IMG/VR virus record: IMGVR_UViG_3300030116_004952
Location: 12,530-76,529 of that record
Strand: one strand, 5' to 3'
DNA: 64,000 bases
Source of the DNA: a virus
Shown one piece after another: positions 41,836 to 49,630 of this stretch. A program made the translations under genes and the position numbers. Under the pieces are notes generated by a model, which worked only from the letters and a program-made list of their open reading frames with translations, had not been told where the DNA came from and searched no databases. How positions within the stretch are numbered: the stretch's first letter is position 1; each line of letters opens with the position of its first letter.

Positions 41836-41962
41836 TTTTAATCACCTTATTTTTATTAAGATTGGAATAGGCGGAGAAGGAGCAATACAGATAATTAAAG
41901 TGCGGAGGTAATTATCTGTTTATCGTCTAAACGGCCACCTTTGCTACAACTTCTCCATGAAG

Positions 41963-42046
41963 TGTGGGAAGTGGGATTTGAACCCACGAAGCAATTCGCA
42001 CAGGATTTTAAGCCCTGCTCCTTTGACCAAACTCGGATATTCCCAC
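41963..42046 (-). tRNA. tRNA-Leu(TAA)
   Basis: GTGGGAA/TTCCCAC acceptor; CAGGG-CTTAAAA-TCCTG anticodon arm; long variable arm; GTGGG-TTCAAAT-CCCAC T arm. Confidence 0.92.
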
Positions 42047-42386: not shown

Positions 42387-42866
42387 TCAAAGTTCTTCGC
42401 TAGTTTCAGCAGAAAGGAGGCTATCTACTGAACCATCCCAAGTTCCAGCCTTATATTGACTGTTAAGGGAGTTTCGTGTTTTCTTAACCCAAGAAGCAGC
42501 AAATTCTTCTGCGGAGTCATATTGACCGCCACCAGACTTTGCGTGTTTAACGGAGATTGCTCCGATAATTGGGTCATGGTTGTAATAAGCCGTAATTGCT
42601 TCTTCAACAACACCACAAATTCTGTCAGTAGCAACACGGACTGCGGCAGGAATACTGCTCTTTTGTCCTCGACGGAACGGAGTTCCATCTCTTCCCTTCA
42701 ATAGAGCCTTAAGTGCGTTATGTGCCGCATCTCGCTCATTAGGGTTTTCTGTTCCTACTTGAAGGTGCAACTGCACGATTTGTCGCAATCCACCGTCAAG
42801 GGCGGAATCTGCTTCCAAATACTCTTCAACTTCAATCTTCAAACTGTTCCAATTCATATCATCCAT
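42387..42866 (-). CDS. Paralog A of a three-member uncharacterised family
   Basis: RRGQKSSIPA...KHAKSGG...WDGS; TATA-like CCTTATATA upstream; likely start MDDMNW. Confidence 0.7.
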   Translation of the reverse strand: MDDMNWNSLKIEVEEYLEADSALDGGLRQIVQLHLQVGTENPNERDAAHNALKALLKGRDGTPFRRGQKSSIPAAVRVATDRICGVVEEAITAYYNHDPIIGAISVKHAKSGGGQYDSAEEFAASWVKKTRNSLNSQYKAGTWDGSVDSLLSAETSEEL

Positions 42867-42911
42867 ATGTATCAACTTCTGCCCGTAGGCGAAGTTCCAT
42901 AGATTGACCAT

Positions 42912-43600
42912 ATATAAGGGATAATAAAATCAAACCCTCGATTCATTCTTGAACATCATTCTAATCTTTCTAAACTTTCTAAAGTTTTTTCTTAGCCAAT
43001 TCTATTCCATCAATCAATTCATGCGAAAAAACAGCCAATGTGTTTTTCAAACCAATAAAAATTAATTGATATTTTTACAAACAACATTTTAGATTGATAA
43101 ATTCTGATGTTTCTAATCGAGGCGAGGTTATTCTAAAACGATTAAATAATAGGTTATGCAACACAGCCTAGAAGAAAATTAGCGAAACCGTCATTTTGGC
43201 AACATTTTTCTTTTTTCTAATTTTCTAATGACCCCCATAGAGATTCTATATCTCCCATAGGGTGATTCTGTAATAAGTAATAAGCCACACACATAATAGT
43301 AGTAGTAGTAAGTATTAGAATATTAGAATATTAGAAATATTTATTTTCTCTTTCCTTCTGTTACACAACCCTCCAGTTTCTCAAGGTTTGTTTTATTCTA
43401 ACGACCTCGACGACCTTAGAATAATGTTTTACTTTAATTATAGTATAATTATATCTTATACGATATTGTATATGTATATCCTATACATATAAGACCAATT
43501 GAAATATACCCTTTGAAAAGACGTTCTAAGTTGGTATTAACATTTGATACCTATGTAGTGTTAAGTTGATAGTATGTAATTAGGTGAAACGCTTTGTGTT
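42912..43600. other. AT-rich divergent non-coding region with short repeats (candidate origin or genome terminus)
   Basis: No ORFs; gene orientation flips here; (TATTAGAA)x3 at 43313-43336; many TTCTAA/TTAGAA hexamers. Confidence 0.45.
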
Positions 43601-43685
43601 GAACCTTAAGTAGGGTATATTCATACTATGAACAGTCGTCGAGCATTGGTCAAAAACCAAACAAAACGACAGGAGATGAAAAATT

Positions 43686-44228
43686 ATGACGGAACTATCA
43701 GTAGCGAAGTTTGAAGAACGATGTGAGCCAATTGTTGCACATATGGCTCAACATGATATTGGAGCATTTGCGCCAATTATCGAAGGAACAATGAAACAAG
43801 GTATGAACAAAGACCTTACCGATGAACAACGTGGAAACCTTTGGGATTCTATCCGTTCTATGGTAAAAAACGTCGAAGGCTTGAAACTTCGACATGGGCG
43901 ACGTTCAAGCCTTCCAGCAGAAATCATGGTAAATGTCCAATCTGTTGCGAATCAGGTAAGGACTGCCTGTGTTGCACTTATTGAGAACTGCCCTGTATTG
44001 CTTGAGGTTATTTTGCCTCATGGTAAAACTGGTGGAAATTACACTCAAGAGTCTTTTGCGGACTATTTCGCAGATAAGGCAGAAACCAACCTAATCTCGG
44101 CTTATCGGGATAAGGATGGTCGTCGTTGGGATGGAACTCTCAATGATGACGGCATGACTGGTATGGTTGCTCCAGTTAAGGCCGATTCAAACAATGATGA
44201 TTCTTCGGAGGTTTCTGAAGAAGAATGA
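43686..44228 (+). CDS. Paralog B
   Basis: RHGRRSSLPA...PHGKTGG...WDGTL; AGGAG RBS. Confidence 0.75.
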   Translation: MTELSVAKFEERCEPIVAHMAQHDIGAFAPIIEGTMKQGMNKDLTDEQRGNLWDSIRSMVKNVEGLKLRHGRRSSLPAEIMVNVQSVANQVRTACVALIENCPVLLEVILPHGKTGGNYTQESFADYFADKAETNLISAYRDKDGRRWDGTLNDDGMTGMVAPVKADSNNDDSSEVSEEE

Positions 44229-44441
44229 TTGTTGTTTTTGAATGAATTATTGGTCAATGCTCGACGGCCACCTCATTCTTTTCGCTAAGGGGGGATAATC
44301 ACATTAGAAGCCACTTCAAGAACGCCAGATGTTTCTTTGAAGGATAACTGATGAAATGATGTGAGAATCCCCCCTTATGCAGTTTTTTTGTTGCTTAAGA
44401 TTGCACAAAGCGCAACCATATGGTAGGATTCTTTGAATTAT

Positions 44442-44453
44442 ACCTTATATACC
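44442..44453 (+). promoter_or_regulatory. Archaeal TATA-like promoter ACCTTA(T/A)ATACC (representative copy)
   Basis: Similar boxes near 43604, 45052, 45753 and 47856 (+), and near 47060, 47802 and 42910 (-), each a short distance upstream of a cassette gene. Confidence 0.6.
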
Positions 44454-44486
44454 TATTATAGATACATAGGACAAGGAGGTAATCCA

Positions 44487-44864
44487 ATGTCTGAAACATA
44501 CATAGTAATAGATACACAAGACAATGAGCGAAGCATTGGTTCTTATTCACGTAAGAATCATGCCGAAGAAGATAGAATGCACCTAATGAAAACGCATTTT
44601 GAGCGAACTATGGGGGAAATGGAAAAATTAGCCAAATCACCCATCAAGCGAGCGATGAAGGTCGTTAAGGTGGATTTAGACCACCCTGATGTTACGGAAC
44701 ATGACCGTGATTTTGCAATCATGCGAAATCAAACTTTTGTCAAGGTTAAGTTGGTGAATGAACTTCACTTCGAGTATAAGAAGTTGAAAGCATCAATTTC
44801 ACCAGAAAATCCACGATACATCATCAAGACCGTTGAACATCGTGATTCTCGATTTTATTCGTGA
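44487..44864 (+). CDS. Cassette hypothetical protein
   Basis: GGAGG RBS then MSETY; own promoter and terminator. Confidence 0.65.
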   Translation: MSETYIVIDTQDNERSIGSYSRKNHAEEDRMHLMKTHFERTMGEMEKLAKSPIKRAMKVVKVDLDHPDVTEHDRDFAIMRNQTFVKVKLVNELHFEYKKLKASISPENPRYIIKTVEHRDSRFYS

Positions 44865-44924
44865 ATTGGTCTGATTGACTCGTTTTGACAGGTTCGACCT
44901 GTGTTGATGCAAAAGCATCTTGCC

Positions 44925-44963
44925 TCCCCTCGCATGGTTCAGGCCATGCGGGGGGACTTTTTT
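44925..44963 (+). terminator. Hairpin + U-tract
   Basis: TCCCCTCGCATGG-ttcagg-CCATGCGGGGGGA-CTTTTTT. Confidence 0.7.
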
Positions 44964-45102
44964 CATTTTTAGCCCCTCCCATCCCTAGCGAATAATATAA
45001 CAAAAATCATTTATAACGCTACAACCATATGGTATGGGACTTTGGAGTTATACCTTAAATACCTACTAAATTGAGTATGAATACCCTGAATGGAGGGATT
45101 AC

Positions 45103-45621
45103 ATGGAAGAAGAAGTAAGAACAACCGAAGAAGAAATGAACCGAAAAGCCACAATGGAAGATGTTGAGGCATTTGCGAAGGAGTTTGGTGTGAGTAAAAC
45201 AGGATGCACCTATAACAAGTTCACAATTGCCCTAGTAACCATGATTAACGTGCTATACAACCATACTTTGGCTAGTAGTAGCATAAATCTTGAATGCCTC
45301 AAAATCCTAGTTGGTGAACCTATGTATGTTATGGATGAACTACTTAAGGTTAAGAAGCAATATGAAAAGGACAAGAAGATTTGGGATAACCGTGTTGAAG
45401 GAGAACGTAAATCCCGAATCCAAGCGGAAAAATCCTTAAGTGAGAAACAAAGACAAATTGACGGCTTTCTTACCAATGACGTAATTAATAACGTCATTGT
45501 TTCTGGTATCAGAAAGGATTTAGATAGGTGTGTTCGTGATGCAGACGAAAGTTTTGAATTTATGACGAGTTTGAAACACGCTTCATATGAAAGCCAGCAA
45601 ACATTTCAAAAATTCTTTTGA
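45103..45621 (+). CDS. Cassette hypothetical coiled-coil protein
   Basis: GGAGG RBS; own promoter and terminator. Confidence 0.65.
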   Translation: MEEEVRTTEEEMNRKATMEDVEAFAKEFGVSKTGCTYNKFTIALVTMINVLYNHTLASSSINLECLKILVGEPMYVMDELLKVKKQYEKDKKIWDNRVEGERKSRIQAEKSLSEKQRQIDGFLTNDVINNVIVSGIRKDLDRCVRDADESFEFMTSLKHASYESQQTFQKFF

Positions 45622-45658
45622 TTGAGAAGGTTTGAATAGATAGTCTGGGCAGTTATAT

Positions 45659-45698
45659 GGGGGATAGAGGGCTAAACGCCCTTTATCCCCCTCTTTTT
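45659..45698 (+). terminator. Hairpin + U-tract
   Basis: GGGGGATAGAGGGC-taaac-GCCCTTTATCCCCC-TCTTTTT. Confidence 0.7.
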
Positions 45699-45823
45699 GA
45701 GTTGTAACTTAAAAACACCGTTACAACCATATGGTTGGCTTTGCCAACCTCATTAAATACCTATTGCACCTTCTATGAACGGTTTATGGTGCATAGTGAA
45801 TCAAACACTATGGAGGAATCAAA

Positions 45824-46330
45824 ATGAACGAAGAAAAATGGACAACAAAAAGAGAACTAATTGTTTCTTATGTGAACAACAACGACGTTGGAGCATTCAA
45901 CGTAATTGTTATGGGAACTGTTGAAGCAATTGACAAAACACAGCCCGATGACCGAACACCTTTGATTGAATCACTACGTTCAATCTTTAAGACAATTGAC
46001 CCAAATAAGGTAAGTGGTGCTTTTCGCACAGGAAAAGCCTCTTCACTTCCCGCTAGTGTCATTTCAGTTCTAGGTGGCATTATGTCGGATGTTCGAGCAA
46101 ATCTTCAAGATTTGTTCAATGCTCCGCATATGTCTCAACTTTTGACACCGCACGGTAAATCAAAGGATATGGGTCATTTGTTCGTCAATGATGAACAATA
46201 TGCAGATTATGAAGCAAAGCGAATTGAAAACCGATTGACTCGATGGTATCGAGAAAAGATTTGGGATGGCACGCTAGAAGGACTACAAACTCTTTCTTTC
46301 CCTTCAATGGAGGTTGAAGAGGAAGAATGA
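45824..46330 (+). CDS. Paralog C
   Basis: RTGKASSLPA...PHGKSKD...WDGTL; GGAGG RBS. Confidence 0.75.
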   Translation: MNEEKWTTKRELIVSYVNNNDVGAFNVIVMGTVEAIDKTQPDDRTPLIESLRSIFKTIDPNKVSGAFRTGKASSLPASVISVLGGIMSDVRANLQDLFNAPHMSQLLTPHGKSKDMGHLFVNDEQYADYEAKRIENRLTRWYREKIWDGTLEGLQTLSFPSMEVEEEE

Positions 46331-46374
46331 TTAATTGATTGATTATGCACCATAGGCCACCTTTTATTCTTTAA

Positions 46375-46445
46375 TGGGCAATAGGGCAATGAAAAGTAAA
46401 ATGAAAATTAATTCCGACTTTTCGCCCTATTGCCCTTGTTTTTTT
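46375..46445 (+). terminator. Extended hairpin + U-tract
   Basis: GGGCAATAGGGC...GAAAAGT...ACTTTTC-GCCCTATTGCCC-TTGTTTTTTT. Confidence 0.65.
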
Positions 46446-46560
46446 GTCGAGGTTGAAATGGCAAAGCCATTACAACCATATGGTTGATAATCTTTGTATT
46501 ATAAAACCTTGAAAAGGAAAACCGAATTTAATCGGTTTTTTAGTTGAATTGGGGTTCAAT

Positions 46561-47040
46561 TCAACGGTCTGGGTGGTATACCATACTTGATTCAAGTTGT
46601 TCAATTTTGCCCTGCGTATCGAGGCTTTCTTGAACTAAGCGAGGTCGAGTATGTAGTCTAATGCCTAATATTCGGCACAATCCCTCAATGTCTCGATATT
46701 GCTTACGGACTTCCGACATGAACCATTTTCCTGTAAAGTAGCGGTAATGACCGTTGCTCATGTTGGGGTTCTTGTTTAGTTCTTCCTGCCATAAATCATC
46801 ACATTCAAAGTCATGTTCTGTAAATCTGACTTGATGCGTCTCTTTTTCGGTTTCTAGCCATGTTTGAAACTTTGTCATTACGGTCTGCAATACAATGTAA
46901 AGTTGCGTTGTTGTTCTTGATTGGCTGTTTTTCAAAGAAAGGAGGAAATGAATGAACGTCAAAGCGTTCTTAATTCTATCTTCCATTCTGTATAGGCTTC
47001 TTGTGTCTTTAGGTTCTAATATCATCATAGTTTTACCCAT
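46561..47040 (-). CDS. Cassette hypothetical protein (inverted orientation)
   Basis: ACCTTAATATA promoter on - strand beside site 47084; AAAACCGA/TCGGTTTT hairpin downstream. Confidence 0.6.
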   Translation of the reverse strand: MGKTMMILEPKDTRSLYRMEDRIKNALTFIHFLLSLKNSQSRTTTQLYIVLQTVMTKFQTWLETEKETHQVRFTEHDFECDDLWQEELNKNPNMSNGHYRYFTGKWFMSEVRKQYRDIEGLCRILGIRLHTRPRLVQESLDTQGKIEQLESSMVYHPDR

Positions 47041-47284
47041 TCTTAGGTTAATTATTGATTATATTAAGGTTGCATCAAATGTGCAACCATATGGTATGGC
47101 TTTGTCATACCTTGACCTAAAAAAATTGAGGGCATCCACCCAACAGAACCTACTAAGGCATACGTTTTTACTTAATTAGGCATTAACTAGTATTGCCGTA
47201 TTTTCTTAACGTGTTGCGTGTTCGTGAACTGCGGGTTTCAGCCCCTAATGGTTTGTTATGGCCAATTAATCGCCATTGGAGTTC

Positions 47285-47326
47285 AAAAAAAGCGATGGGG
47301 GAGGATTGCCTCTTTCCTCCCCCATC
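47285..47326 (-). terminator. Hairpin + U-tract
   Basis: GATGGGGAGGA...TCCTCCCCCATC followed by T7 on the - strand. Confidence 0.6.
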
Positions 47327-47518
47327 ATTATTCCCTGCAATTAACCAATTTTCTATGGTTATTGCTCAAATTGCCGAGAGGCACAATTCAAACGGGCGGA
47401 AGGGGATTACAGTCTAAACATGACTTTAATGTGTATTTATGTTTAGAGTCTCTACAAATCTTAGTTACTGCTTGTCTGAAAGCAGGTATTTCATTGATTA
47501 AGGTTGGTTCGTTTTCTT

Positions 47519-47782
47519 TCATTCTTCTTCACTTCCTGTATAATCAAAAGCCAATTCTGGGTGTAGGATGATGTGTTCAAAATAATTACAGAAAAACGAT
47601 ACCTGCACTTCACGCTTTCCTATGTTTGTTTGAATATTGTATGTTGAACGGTTTGGCATAGAATCTAAATAAGTATAAACATCTTCTAATTGTTGATGTG
47701 ATTCAAACTTAAAGTATTGATTTACGCTCACACTATAATCATCATAAATTGTGTTTCCTAATTCCACTCTATCGGGCTTCAT
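47519..47782 (-). CDS. Cassette hypothetical protein (inverted), coupled to a ~44-aa downstream ORF
   Basis: Ends GSEEE* with GAAGAAGAATGA overlap into MKENEPT...CLDCNPLPPV*. Confidence 0.55.
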   Translation of the reverse strand: MKPDRVELGNTIYDDYSVSVNQYFKFESHQQLEDVYTYLDSMPNRSTYNIQTNIGKREVQVSFFCNYFEHIILHPELAFDYTGSEEE

Positions 47783-47897
47783 GTCCTAAGAATCACAAAT
47801 GGGTATATAGTAGGGTTGTCAAAGACAACCATATGGTAATGCACTTTGGGACAGAACCTTAAATATACCCTATGAAACCTATAATCGGTGAAAACCA

Positions 47898-48188
47898 ATG
47901 AAACGAATACCCGAAGAAATATATGAACAATTGGAGAAAATAAAGAAACACGTTGAAGAAGCATTCATGGCTTTAGAACTAGATAGGGGCATTATGCTTA
48001 ATGTCTTAGTTCATGGTCGTAGTCGTCATATGATAAACAATCAACGTGAATATGCAGAAAACCGAGCGAGATATGTTGTTCACAATCTCAAAAAGGCTTT
48101 TTGGGAGAATCGTTGGAATGGTGAATGGGAAGAAGGCGGAAAAGGTATTATTATCGCTCCCGAAGGTTATACGCTGGAGGAAGAATGA
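47898..48188 (+). CDS. Cassette hypothetical protein
   Basis: GGTGA RBS; ends LEEE*, coupled to the next ORF. Confidence 0.6.
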   Translation: MKRIPEEIYEQLEKIKKHVEEAFMALELDRGIMLNVLVHGRSRHMINNQREYAENRARYVVHNLKKAFWENRWNGEWEEGGKGIIIAPEGYTLEEE

Positions 48189-48523
48189 TGGTATCAAGAA
48201 AACATTTTGAAGCATTTGCTCAATGGGTTGCAGATGAAGAATTAATGGGAACTGAAGAATCAATGGTTGAAAGATTTTGTAACGTCTTGAAATCAATGAA
48301 TCCTCGATTTGACAAAGGGCGATTTATTGCCCGTTGTGATGAATTGCAGGGTTTTGAGCGTGGAAAGTTTGCTTTTCCTATCTCTTCTCAAAATATGCCC
48401 GATTTAGTCCTTCATAACCTTCTTGTGTATCTTTCACAGGCTAAAACACAAAAAGAGCGAATAGGCATTCAAGAATGCATTGACGCTACTTTGAAGGTTT
48501 TTCCTCATTTGAAGGAAAATTGA
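48185..48523 (+). CDS. Small phage-type hypothetical protein
   Basis: Likely start MMVSRKHF; NPRFDKGRF motif. Confidence 0.6.
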   Translation: MMVSRKHFEAFAQWVADEELMGTEESMVERFCNVLKSMNPRFDKGRFIARCDELQGFERGKFAFPISSQNMPDLVLHNLLVYLSQAKTQKERIGIQECIDATLKVFPHLKEN

Positions 48524-49104
48524 GCCTTTAACCCTCAAACGTGCGTGTCCTAAGCATGACCATAAAAACTGCTTGGCTTCGGCCACTTTTTTAGCCCCTA
48601 CCCTCCCTGTGAATTAACAACCTATTATCGAAAGAACATATTGTTTAGTTAATTCAACAACCATATGGTATTGTTAATTTATGCGTTATGCATTGGGGTA
48701 TTATGCTATTATATGTAATCTATATAGATATTCTTAGAAATATATAGATATGACTCTTATTAAGTCGATTATAGCCAAAATAATAGCCCGTTAATCAATA
48801 CACCATAAATAAATTAAAACGTCGTTATGCACCATGCATTGGCATATTAACGCCCTATTATTCTAAATAAAAATAATACACAACCATATGGCTTTGTTCC
48901 AATTTTTATTTTTATATATGAACAATGCATCATTAAGCAATTAAGCTTCAATAATGCAATATTAATCACTTTAGCAGATATAATCAAGCCTAAACGACCT
49001 ATTTAGCATCAATGCTTTGAATTAGTTTGCAAGATATGGTTAAAATGTTAAACCTAACAATGCTTATAATATAGACTGAACTACCTTACCTTGAGGCAAG
49101 ATAT

Positions 49105-49332
49105 ATGCCAACAAAGGATGATGTAATTAGCAATATACAGACTATTACAAAACAAATGAACGAAATACTCCTTATAATAAAAGAAAACAAAAGAAAGGGT
49201 ATTAATGAAGGAAATAAGGTTAATTTATTAGCATTAAAAGAAATACAATCAAATTTAAATAGACTTAAAAAACAAGTTACTGATATTATAAATCCAAATA
49301 CTAGACAAACCAGTTTTGATGAATATAGATAA
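49105..49332 (+). CDS. Small coiled-coil protein
   Basis: GAGG upstream; 75 aa. Confidence 0.45.
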   Translation: MPTKDDVISNIQTITKQMNEILLIIKENKRKGINEGNKVNLLALKEIQSNLNRLKKQVTDIINPNTRQTSFDEYR

Positions 49333-49456
49333 ATAATTAAAAATAAATAATTAATTGTTAAGGTTTTATTCTGGAAATACAATTATTAACAAAAAATTAT
49401 AAACGCAAGTGCCGAAAAAATTCCAGCCCAAATTTTGAGAAATTTAAGGTGATATT

Positions 49457-49630
49457 ATGTGGAAAGACGAAATTAAGAAAAGAATTAAAGAAGGTGCTTT
49501 TGAAAATTTAACAAAAAGACACCTTAATGTTATTAATGCTATTATTAAATTATACAAGCAAGAAGGGCCAATTGATAAAGAACAATTAAAGCAAATTCTA
49601 AAAGATGATGATATGGTTCATTTACTTTGA
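49457..49630 (+). CDS. W-tag small protein (MWKDEIKK)
   Basis: Manual 57-aa ORF with GGTGA RBS, below the track cut-off. Confidence 0.6.
   Translation: MWKDEIKKRIKEGAFENLTKRHLNVINAIIKLYKQEGPIDKEQLKQILKDDDMVHLL

Follow-up and report, generated by a model that had tools for sequence, protein, structure and literature searches.

The window analysed here is a stretch of 64 kb (64,000 nucleotides) from the 76,529-bp IMG/VR virus record IMGVR_UViG_3300030116_004952, for which CheckV gives a completeness of 83%. Between positions 44413 and 48892 it carries an array of small gene units separated by a repeated palindromic motif. This motif (the core), together with the promoter-like and hairpin elements around it (the joint), is the subject of the present work. 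The window encodes a family-B DNA polymerase (PolB) fragment, an ATP-dependent ligase, a thermosome-type chaperonin, a ribonucleotide reductase, a UvrD-like helicase and a large terminase, the same gene set reported for the magroviruses of Marine Group II archaea (PMC5434244), and judged from this gene content the virus is a magrovirus. The minus strand carries the genes at 8-42 kb and the plus strand those from 50 kb on, with the array between both blocks, at the minimum of the cumulative GC skew and with a G+C content of 0.37-0.39, compared with 0.30-0.36 in most other parts of the window. Sigma-70-like sites are not enriched (14 found, 18.6 expected), and tRNA is the only Rfam family above threshold in the window. 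Although uncultured, magroviruses rank with the most abundant surface-ocean viruses.

The eight sites listed in the earlier note on this DNA are all confirmed, with their positions and spacings: CAACCATATGGT is exact at 44413, 45022, 45724, 46473, 47084, 47826 and 48658 and has one change (GGC) at 48881, consecutive sites being 609, 702, 749, 611, 742, 832 and 223 bp apart. The chance expectation for matches to CAACCATATGGT is 0.33, and none of 100 shuffles reaches 11. Moreover, the palindromic 10-mer core ACCATATGGT is confined to the array, since the scan of the whole record proposed in that note returns no other copy, either in the window or in the full 76,529 bp. At 45724 and 46473 the palindrome extends to a full 14 bp. 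The outer arms, likewise described before, are also present: CTTTG follows the core after 3-7 nt at six sites, and CAAAG precedes it at three (44406, 46463 and 47820). The six long intervals contain open reading frames (ORFs) of 87-172 aa, four units facing plus and two facing minus, and terminators made of a G+C-rich hairpin and a T-run are enriched (13 found, 3.7 ± 1.9 expected). The ORF map, the promoter-like modules and the terminators thus agree with the claim of an array of self-contained small-gene units. Avoidance of a restriction site was considered as an explanation of the motif and rejected, CATATG not being depleted (29 found, 17 expected). The features of the array are as follows, where L121 and L122 are related genomes compared with the window below, and X9 contigs are those from one of the metagenomes.

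44413-44424: joint 1, CAACCATATGGT, with a CAAAG arm at 44406-44410, CTTTG at 44431-44435 and a TATA-like TTATATA at about 44445-44451; heads the ORF 44487-44864.
44487-44864, plus strand: unit 1 ORF, 125 aa, without family match; a very different ORF lies between the same putative promoter and terminator in L121 and in an X9 contig.
44925-44956, plus strand: unit 1 terminator hairpin, 14 pairs plus a T-run.
45022-45033: joint 2, core with the hairpin GGTAT/ATACC, whose loop contains CTTTG, and, at about 45055-45061, the TATA-like TTAAATA; forms the left border of the unit absent from L121.
45103-45621, plus strand: unit 2 ORF, 172 aa; the whole unit 45034-45725 is absent in L121 and inverted in L122.
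45659-45691, plus strand: unit 2 terminator hairpin.
45724-45737: joint 3, 14-bp palindrome CAACCATATGGTTG; the hairpin GGTTGG-CTTTG-CCAACC occupies 45733-45749, and a TATA-like box lies at about 45752-45759.
45824-46330, plus strand: unit 3 ORF, 168 aa, member of an all-alpha paralog family of about 175 aa; the unit is inverted in L122, with cores at both ends.
46376-46446, plus strand: unit 3 terminator as read from the sequence, GGGCAATAGGGC ... GCCCTATTGCCC, then a T-run.
46473-46486: joint 4, 14-bp palindrome with CTTTG/CAAAG hairpins on both sides and, at right, an apparent orphan promoter-like module; the 611-bp unit missing in an X9 contig has its left border here.
46561-47040, minus strand: unit 4 ORF, 159 aa, without family match; minus-strand TATA-like box at about 47059-47067, ATG 46 nt from the core.
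47084-47095: joint 5, core, with the putative minus-strand promoter of unit 4 at left and the hairpin GGTATG-gCTTTGt-CATACC at right.
47304-47337: G+C-rich hairpin in unit 5, GATGGGGGAGGA...TCCTCCCCCATC, probably the terminator of the minus ORF 47519-47782.
47519-47782, minus strand: unit 5 ORF, 87 aa; its L121 allele is 33% identical in protein, between flanks of 86-92% DNA identity.
47826-47837: joint 6, core between putative divergent promoters, with minus TATATA at 47804-47809 (for 47519-47782), plus TTAAATATA at 47859-47867 (for 47898-48188), CAAAG at 47820-47824 and CTTTG at 47844-47848.
47898-48523, plus strand: unit 6, two coupled ORFs, 47898-48188 (96 aa), which clusters with the paralog family, and 48185-48523 (112 aa).
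48658-48669: joint 7, core without CTTTG hairpin or ORF; opens a 223-bp AT-rich unit with internal repeats.
48881-48892: joint 8, variant CAACCATATGGC overlapping CTTTG, then TTTTTATTTTTATATAT; right end of the array.

In one respect this map departs from the earlier description, in which site 46473 was said to lie between converging terminators with no promoter. On its right side a CTTTG hairpin and the TATA-like box TATTATAAAACC are found, aimed at a bidirectional terminator about 30 nt away, and this looks like an orphan promoter-like module. In unit 5, the stretch 47096-47518 comprises about 420 nt without a convincing ORF; the segment 47125-47345 folds with z = -4.0, mostly owing to the one G+C-rich hairpin, and the stretch could be a long 3' untranslated region of the minus gene or a small RNA expressed from the plus-facing module at 47084.

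Relatives were collected with the pattern core-N3-8-CTTTG, which retrieves more than 116 IMG/VR contigs, many of them 60-97 kb long and with several matches. At least 43 non-redundant related contigs carry arrays of at least three exact cores, mostly spaced by 400-1300 bp, and four complete relatives (91-96 kb) have 5-9 cores each, in the array only. The core stays invariant while the neighbouring UvrD protein falls to 60-76% identity. This invariance among diverged proteins argues for a sequence-specific reader of the core, and its symmetry suggests that such a reader would be a dimer. A scan of 185,579 prokaryote species genomes with the full tripartite element CAAAG-core-CTTTG gave 29 single matches in unrelated bacteria, which is the chance level, and one array, located in a metagenome-assembled genome (MAG) labelled Altibacter sp. 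The latter is a 14.8-kb contig (L164, NZ_NZTP01000027.1) with six cores, five of them in the full CAAAG-core-CTTTG form; since it encodes a magrovirus UvrD (64% identical to that of the window) together with three proteins of the paralog family, it probably derives from a magrovirus and was mis-binned into a flavobacterial MAG. In the literature no description of such palindrome arrays was found: the matches listed for the motif string concern unrelated subjects, and the magrovirus papers searched are silent on a palindrome or promoter.

A comparison of the joints within the window and among these arrays reveals a composite with a constant order, from the terminator hairpin and its T-run through the CAAAG arm, the core, a hairpin anchored at the GGT of the core with CTTTG in its loop and a TATA-like box to the ORF start. 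Outward from the core, the joints of the window read N3-7, CTTTG, N4-7 and (A)ACCTTAAATACC, the ATG of plus genes lying 61-89 nt from the core, and both minus genes have their own TATA-like box and an ATG at 46 nt. Around 47826, where two oppositely facing genes each have a TATA-like box, this points to a divergent promoter pair sharing one core. For the magrovirus arrays as a whole, the distance from the core to the first ATG of an ORF of at least 50 aa peaks at 40-69 nt (66 of 141), a random-position control being flat. Of the 58 ORF-side flanks with a match to a TATA-like box, 44 have its start 16-27 nt from the core, and the ATG follows 25-45 nt further, distances which fit leaderless or short-leader mRNAs.

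The CTTTG element occurs in 80% of ORF-side flanks versus 53% on the opposite side. In the arrays of the relatives, 222 of 398 flanks have it within 16 nt of the core, and 94 of 227 sites have it on both sides, with a variable core-to-CTTTG spacing of 3-8 nt. A perfect stem of at least 5 bp anchored at the GGT of the core is present in 36.6% of flanks, compared with 9.6% at other GGT sites in the same arrays; CTTTG is in the loop of 77% of these stems, and their 3' arm ends in ACC and abuts YTAWAWA. The stem sequences themselves vary from site to site (in the window, GGTTGG/CCAACC and GGTATG/CATACC). As the letters differ while the stems persist, what is conserved in the hairpin is its structure rather than its letters, and it directly adjoins the promoter box. 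G:T closes the stems more often than A:C (51 versus 12), base composition predicting 35 versus 11. This hairpin may act as an attenuator or insulator, as in the promoter-early stem-loops (PeSLs) discussed below, or may form a cruciform or a single-strand structure. Also, the putative promoter of the ORF 43686-44228 reads CTTTG-N6-AACCTTAAGTA and has no core, which suggests that CTTTG is part of the promoter module and the core a separate element.

According to the earlier note, a fixed distance to transcription starts would make the palindrome a plain operator, and by the proxies of start codons (40-69 nt) and TATA-like boxes (16-27 nt) a preferred distance is what is found. This geometry, together with the invariance of the core across diverged relatives, is what would be expected if the core were a transcription-factor site only, without any role in recombination, the joints being the only conserved islands and the surviving viruses those that keep whole units. 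The rarity of rearrangement relative to point divergence (one unit insertion or deletion in 5 kb at about 90% identity) and the location of most alignment ends away from the core would also agree with this explanation. Against it stand the junctions described next, two of which are independent deletions with their crossover inside 12-14 bp common to both copies and one of which is a core-bounded inversion, and a fourfold enrichment of alignment ends at the core edge. Base-exact junctions in a repeat are not predicted by selection alone, and on balance we consider that a site for a transcription factor and nothing more is unlikely.

To compare gene order, syntenic loci were fetched via the neighbouring UvrD gene, and Logan contigs of four metagenomes were compared with the window. 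The near-twin L121 is a complete 90.9-kb genome with direct terminal repeats, whose UvrD is 98% identical in protein and whose corresponding region is about 90% identical in DNA and collinear except for a few changes. It lacks the unit 45034-45725 and has at this place a single core, with the left flank of the window's 45022 and the right flank of 45724, so that the crossover falls inside the shared TACAACCATATGGT. Likewise, in a 2,467-nt contig assembled from another study's metagenome of 2024, position 46472 is followed directly by 47084; 611 bp are skipped, and 12 letters at the junction fit both sides. Contigs in two runs match the window up to 46484 and then continue into other sequence that opens with a CTTTG module. 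The more distant L122 (78% nucleotide identity) has the units of the ORFs 45103-45621 and 45824-46330 inverted and lacks two units; the alignment of its inverted unit 45724-46484 begins a few bases ahead of one core and extends to the other, where the similarity stops. When the ends of long array alignments were examined without cutting the arrays at the cores beforehand, 9.9% of the 81 ends fell within -3 to +8 nt of the far edge of the core, versus 2.5% for random positions. Two further joints, 44424 to 47819 and 48898-48915 to 49399-49405, were set aside, only 20-37 letters matching on one side. Also, no joint that goes back at any core, as expected of circular cassettes, is present in the assembled contigs, which cannot show rare forms; the sole joints of this type are at 49433-49480, in a repeat at gene starts.

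A second type of change replaces single ORFs between conserved ends. L121 has different sequence in place of the ORFs 44487-44864 and 47898-48188, the promoter and terminator sequences on either side being conserved; only 31 C-terminal residues of the former ORF still align with its counterpart, and in another contig from the run that gave the 2,467-nt contig the ORF 44487-44864 is replaced between 44485 and 44887. The ORF 47519-47782 is 33% identical to its L121 counterpart over the full 87 aa, although its flanks are 86-92% identical in DNA. As 33% protein identity beside about 90% DNA identity cannot be explained by point mutation alone, this ORF is, from its sequence, clearly a divergent allele swapped between conserved flanks. 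Relatives therefore differ in the content, order and orientation of their units, as the earlier note had anticipated, and some of the junctions lie exactly in the palindrome, whereas most breakpoints lie at the borders of ORFs and terminators and not at the motif.

One sequence recurring at gene ends may be related to these replacements. The motif GARGAAGAATGA is found 12 times in the window (0.08 expected), mostly at gene ends, the encoded proteins ending in EEE. Its sites are 25173, 25517, 28649, 28861, 37775, 38121, 40142, 40387 and 47519 on the minus strand and 44217, 46319 and 48177 on the plus strand. It looks like a conserved coupler of stop codon, ribosome-binding site and start codon (GAGGA plus ATGA), and it may serve as a 3' homology arm for ORF swaps. 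In the 43 arrays an EE or EEx terminus is present in 53 of 231 ORFs (about 2 expected), and these are spread over 26 unrelated families.

Junctions exact at the core, a palindrome that permits both deletion and inversion, flanking hairpins conserved in structure and variable in sequence, and the extreme diversity of the units are all properties that an integron-like or invertible system would have, as the earlier note proposed. In this case, the recombinase would be of an unrecognised kind, perhaps reading the hairpins as folded single strands in the manner of IntI on attC. However, searches of this record and of the four complete relatives returned no match to the tyrosine recombinase profile PF00589 (Phage_integrase) at E ≤ 1, with controls positive in 14 of 14 genomes, in line with the earlier remark that no integrase is recognisable, and none to the serine recombinase profile PF00239 (Resolvase) or to the Y1 HUH transposase profile PF01797 (Y1_Tnp). 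Moreover, the units all carry promoter-like modules of their own, placed at a fixed distance, breakpoints also occur at ATG and at stop/terminator borders, and a core-CTTTG spacing of 3-8 nt would be unusual for the arm sites of a recombinase. Dedicated site-specific recombination is thus quite improbable, and the integron or invertase interpretation does not hold well against these data. The broader proposition that the palindrome and the CTTTG hairpins are dedicated cassette-exchange sites of archaeal viruses, read by a recombinase or nuclease of an unrecognised family, is one to which we give little credence; if it were true, magroviruses would actively capture and reshuffle accessory genes.

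The earlier note also suggested genome-polar sites, on the ground that the CA prefix of the palindrome is always on the plus strand. This is correct for the window and for its near-twin L121; it fails in five other relatives, where, oriented by the neighbouring UvrD gene, the prefix is found 11 times at the left and 15 times at the right (15 and 15 when L121 is included). The CA polarity thus follows the orientation of the unit and not that of the genome, and the uniform polarity is local to this strain.

The position of the array between divergent gene blocks brings in another explanation, namely that the cores and hairpins are initiator-binding or priming sites of an origin zone, or elements of genome organisation. 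The minimum of the cumulative GC skew at the array, the AT-rich, repeat-bearing stretches that adjoin it at 42.9-43.7 kb and 48.66-49.1 kb, and the occurrence in some relatives of core clusters 90-230 bp apart without ORFs would be compatible with it, as circumstantial evidence. In archaeal origins, ORB elements surround an AT-rich unwinding region beside an initiator gene. On the other hand, whole genes lie between most of the cores, which stay at a fixed distance from start codons and TATA-like boxes; the number and order of units change freely from one close relative to the next, as would not be expected of an origin; and the skew switch coincides with the coding-strand switch. A replication or organisation element is accordingly very improbable. 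A candidate for an origin or control region is the 775-bp AT-rich gap at 42911-43686, which has a divergent paralog gene on each side; it contains short tandem repeats (ATTAGAAT three times, and AGT runs) and no core, adjoins a tRNA-Leu (41962-42046) and lies at the GC-skew minimum.

The interpretation we favour, and hold to be moderately probable, is that the joint regulates accessory genes and also serves as short portable homology, in the manner of a PeSL. The core would be bound by a dimeric, sequence-specific protein, about 45-55 bp upstream of the transcription start and just upstream of the transcription factor B recognition element (BRE) and TATA box, where archaeal activators or repressors act and where the sites of Ptr2-type archaeal regulators lie. 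Sharing the core would place all units under one control, probably as one temporal class of expression. Since the joint recurs at every unit border, it puts 12-14 bp of identity on offer, and since the core is its own reverse complement, this identity is offered in both orientations. General recombination could then use it to delete, insert or invert whole units, and the conserved promoter and stop/terminator ends would be the arms for swapping divergent ORF alleles. If so, the invariant 10-bp signal, with which most of the accessory-gene units are marked, would be a probe for the regulator, for a temporal gene class in metatranscriptomes and for the limits of the hypervariable gene pool.

Several results weigh against this regulatory and homology-based interpretation. 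About 85% of the homology breakpoints are neither at nor next to the core, most of them being 60-200 nt before it, at ORF/terminator borders, and the fact that the rearrangements which survive have their ends at joints could be due to nothing more than selection for intact units. As many as 47 of 154 sites have no ORF start (at least 50 aa) within 200 nt on either side, the sites 48658 and 48881 are without hairpin, and promoters and transcription starts are deduced here from sequence alone. The hairpin folds better on the outward-read strand (-5.3 versus -3.8 kcal/mol), a difference confounded by base composition. As for the proteins required, Pfam finds no DNA-binding domain in 30 small ORFs, a further set of twenty included, so no binding protein is identified, and the Rad51/RadA profile has no match in the five genomes. 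A RadA-like ATPase has been reported for magroviruses (PMC5434244). The one widely shared array protein also lacks a clear fold match, its structural matches being confined to helical bundles of a generic kind (Foldseek E > 1; best Z 7.6 over 68 residues).

This protein belongs to the paralog family of about 175 aa, the only widely shared gene of the arrays; its 46 members are distributed over 33 of the 43 arrays, as a rule with 2-3 to a genome. Its members in the window are:

42387-42911, minus strand: paralog family member, left of the AT-rich gap.
43686-44228, plus strand: paralog family member, right of the AT-rich gap.
45824-46330, plus strand: paralog family member, the unit 3 ORF.
47898-48188, plus strand: paralog family member, the first ORF of unit 6.

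The AlphaFold model of the family is all-helical (predicted local distance difference test, pLDDT, 87.7), with W147, G149 and G70 nearly invariant, and a protein atlas search with the family returned nothing. The remaining array genes are extremely diverse, the 231 ORFs falling into 139 families, 118 of which are singletons, and those of the window have no match above threshold in Pfam or PHROGs. This hypervariable pool probably holds host-takeover or anti-defence genes.

Other observations concern the ends of the units and the right end of the array. The sequence TTTAGCCCCTMCC occurs at 44968-44980 and 48590-48602 (three window matches with one mismatch allowed, 0.12 expected), in both cases directly after the T-run of a terminator and 40-55 nt before a core, and it is found at matching places in L121 and L122. 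After the last full core, 48658-49100 and 49330-49500 are AT-rich and contain internal direct and inverted repeats. The summed depth of contigs from other metagenomes reaches 170 at 48726-48926 and 49329-49500, compared with 6-10 nearby, which indicates that these short segments are common to many co-occurring magroviruses. In several contigs a position near 48900 appears to be joined to one near 49400, the matching sides being short.

Among known systems, archaeal operators and upstream activating sites resemble the core in being palindromes suited to a dimer at a fixed position before the TATA-like box of many co-regulated promoters. However, the magrovirus site is fused to a covarying hairpin, its cognate regulator is not identified among the small ORFs searched with Pfam, and CAAAG-core-CTTTG arrays are absent from the 185,579 prokaryote species genomes save the one probably mis-binned contig, single matches being at chance level. 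Integron arrays (IntI, attI, attC) are similar in their small, diverse, mostly single-gene units bounded by imperfect inverted repeats, in a site structure more conserved than the sequence, and in the gain and loss of units at the sites. They differ in having an integrase, which is not found here, and one shared Pc promoter instead of units with their own promoter-like modules and terminators; moreover, two of the six units are reversed in the window, and an invariant core takes the place of the loosely conserved attC. From shufflons and other invertible segments the array is set apart by the lack of matches to PF00239 and PF00589, and from IS200/IS605 elements by the lack of a match to PF01797, in this record and the four complete relatives.

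The closest likeness in working is to the PeSLs, mobile regulatory cassettes of the T4-type phages phi1 and RB49 (Arbiol et al. 2010, PMC2839356). A PeSL consists of a promoter and a stem-loop motif, is concentrated before ORFans in hyperplastic regions and mediates modular shuffling, and for these elements promoter and terminator activity as well as mini-circles were demonstrated by experiment (PMC2839356), whereas the magrovirus joints are known from sequence. Both are repeated intergenic motifs with a stem-loop, joined in the PeSLs to a promoter of the host type and here to a TATA-like box that would be one; both are concentrated in a hyperplastic region before ORFans, with units that are transcriptionally self-contained (here as predicted from sequence), and in both close relatives differ by gene insertion, deletion or replacement at the motifs. 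The joint differs in its archaeal host and its putative promoter, TATA-like rather than sigma-70, in an invariant 10-bp palindrome without counterpart in PeSLs and absent from the rest of the genome, and in a hairpin whose stem starts from the GGT of this palindrome and whose loop has a conserved CTTTG. By analogy, then, the joint works like a PeSL and is not a member of that class, which suggests that T4-type gene shuffling via repeated promoter/stem-loop joints had an independent origin in a virus using archaeal transcription.

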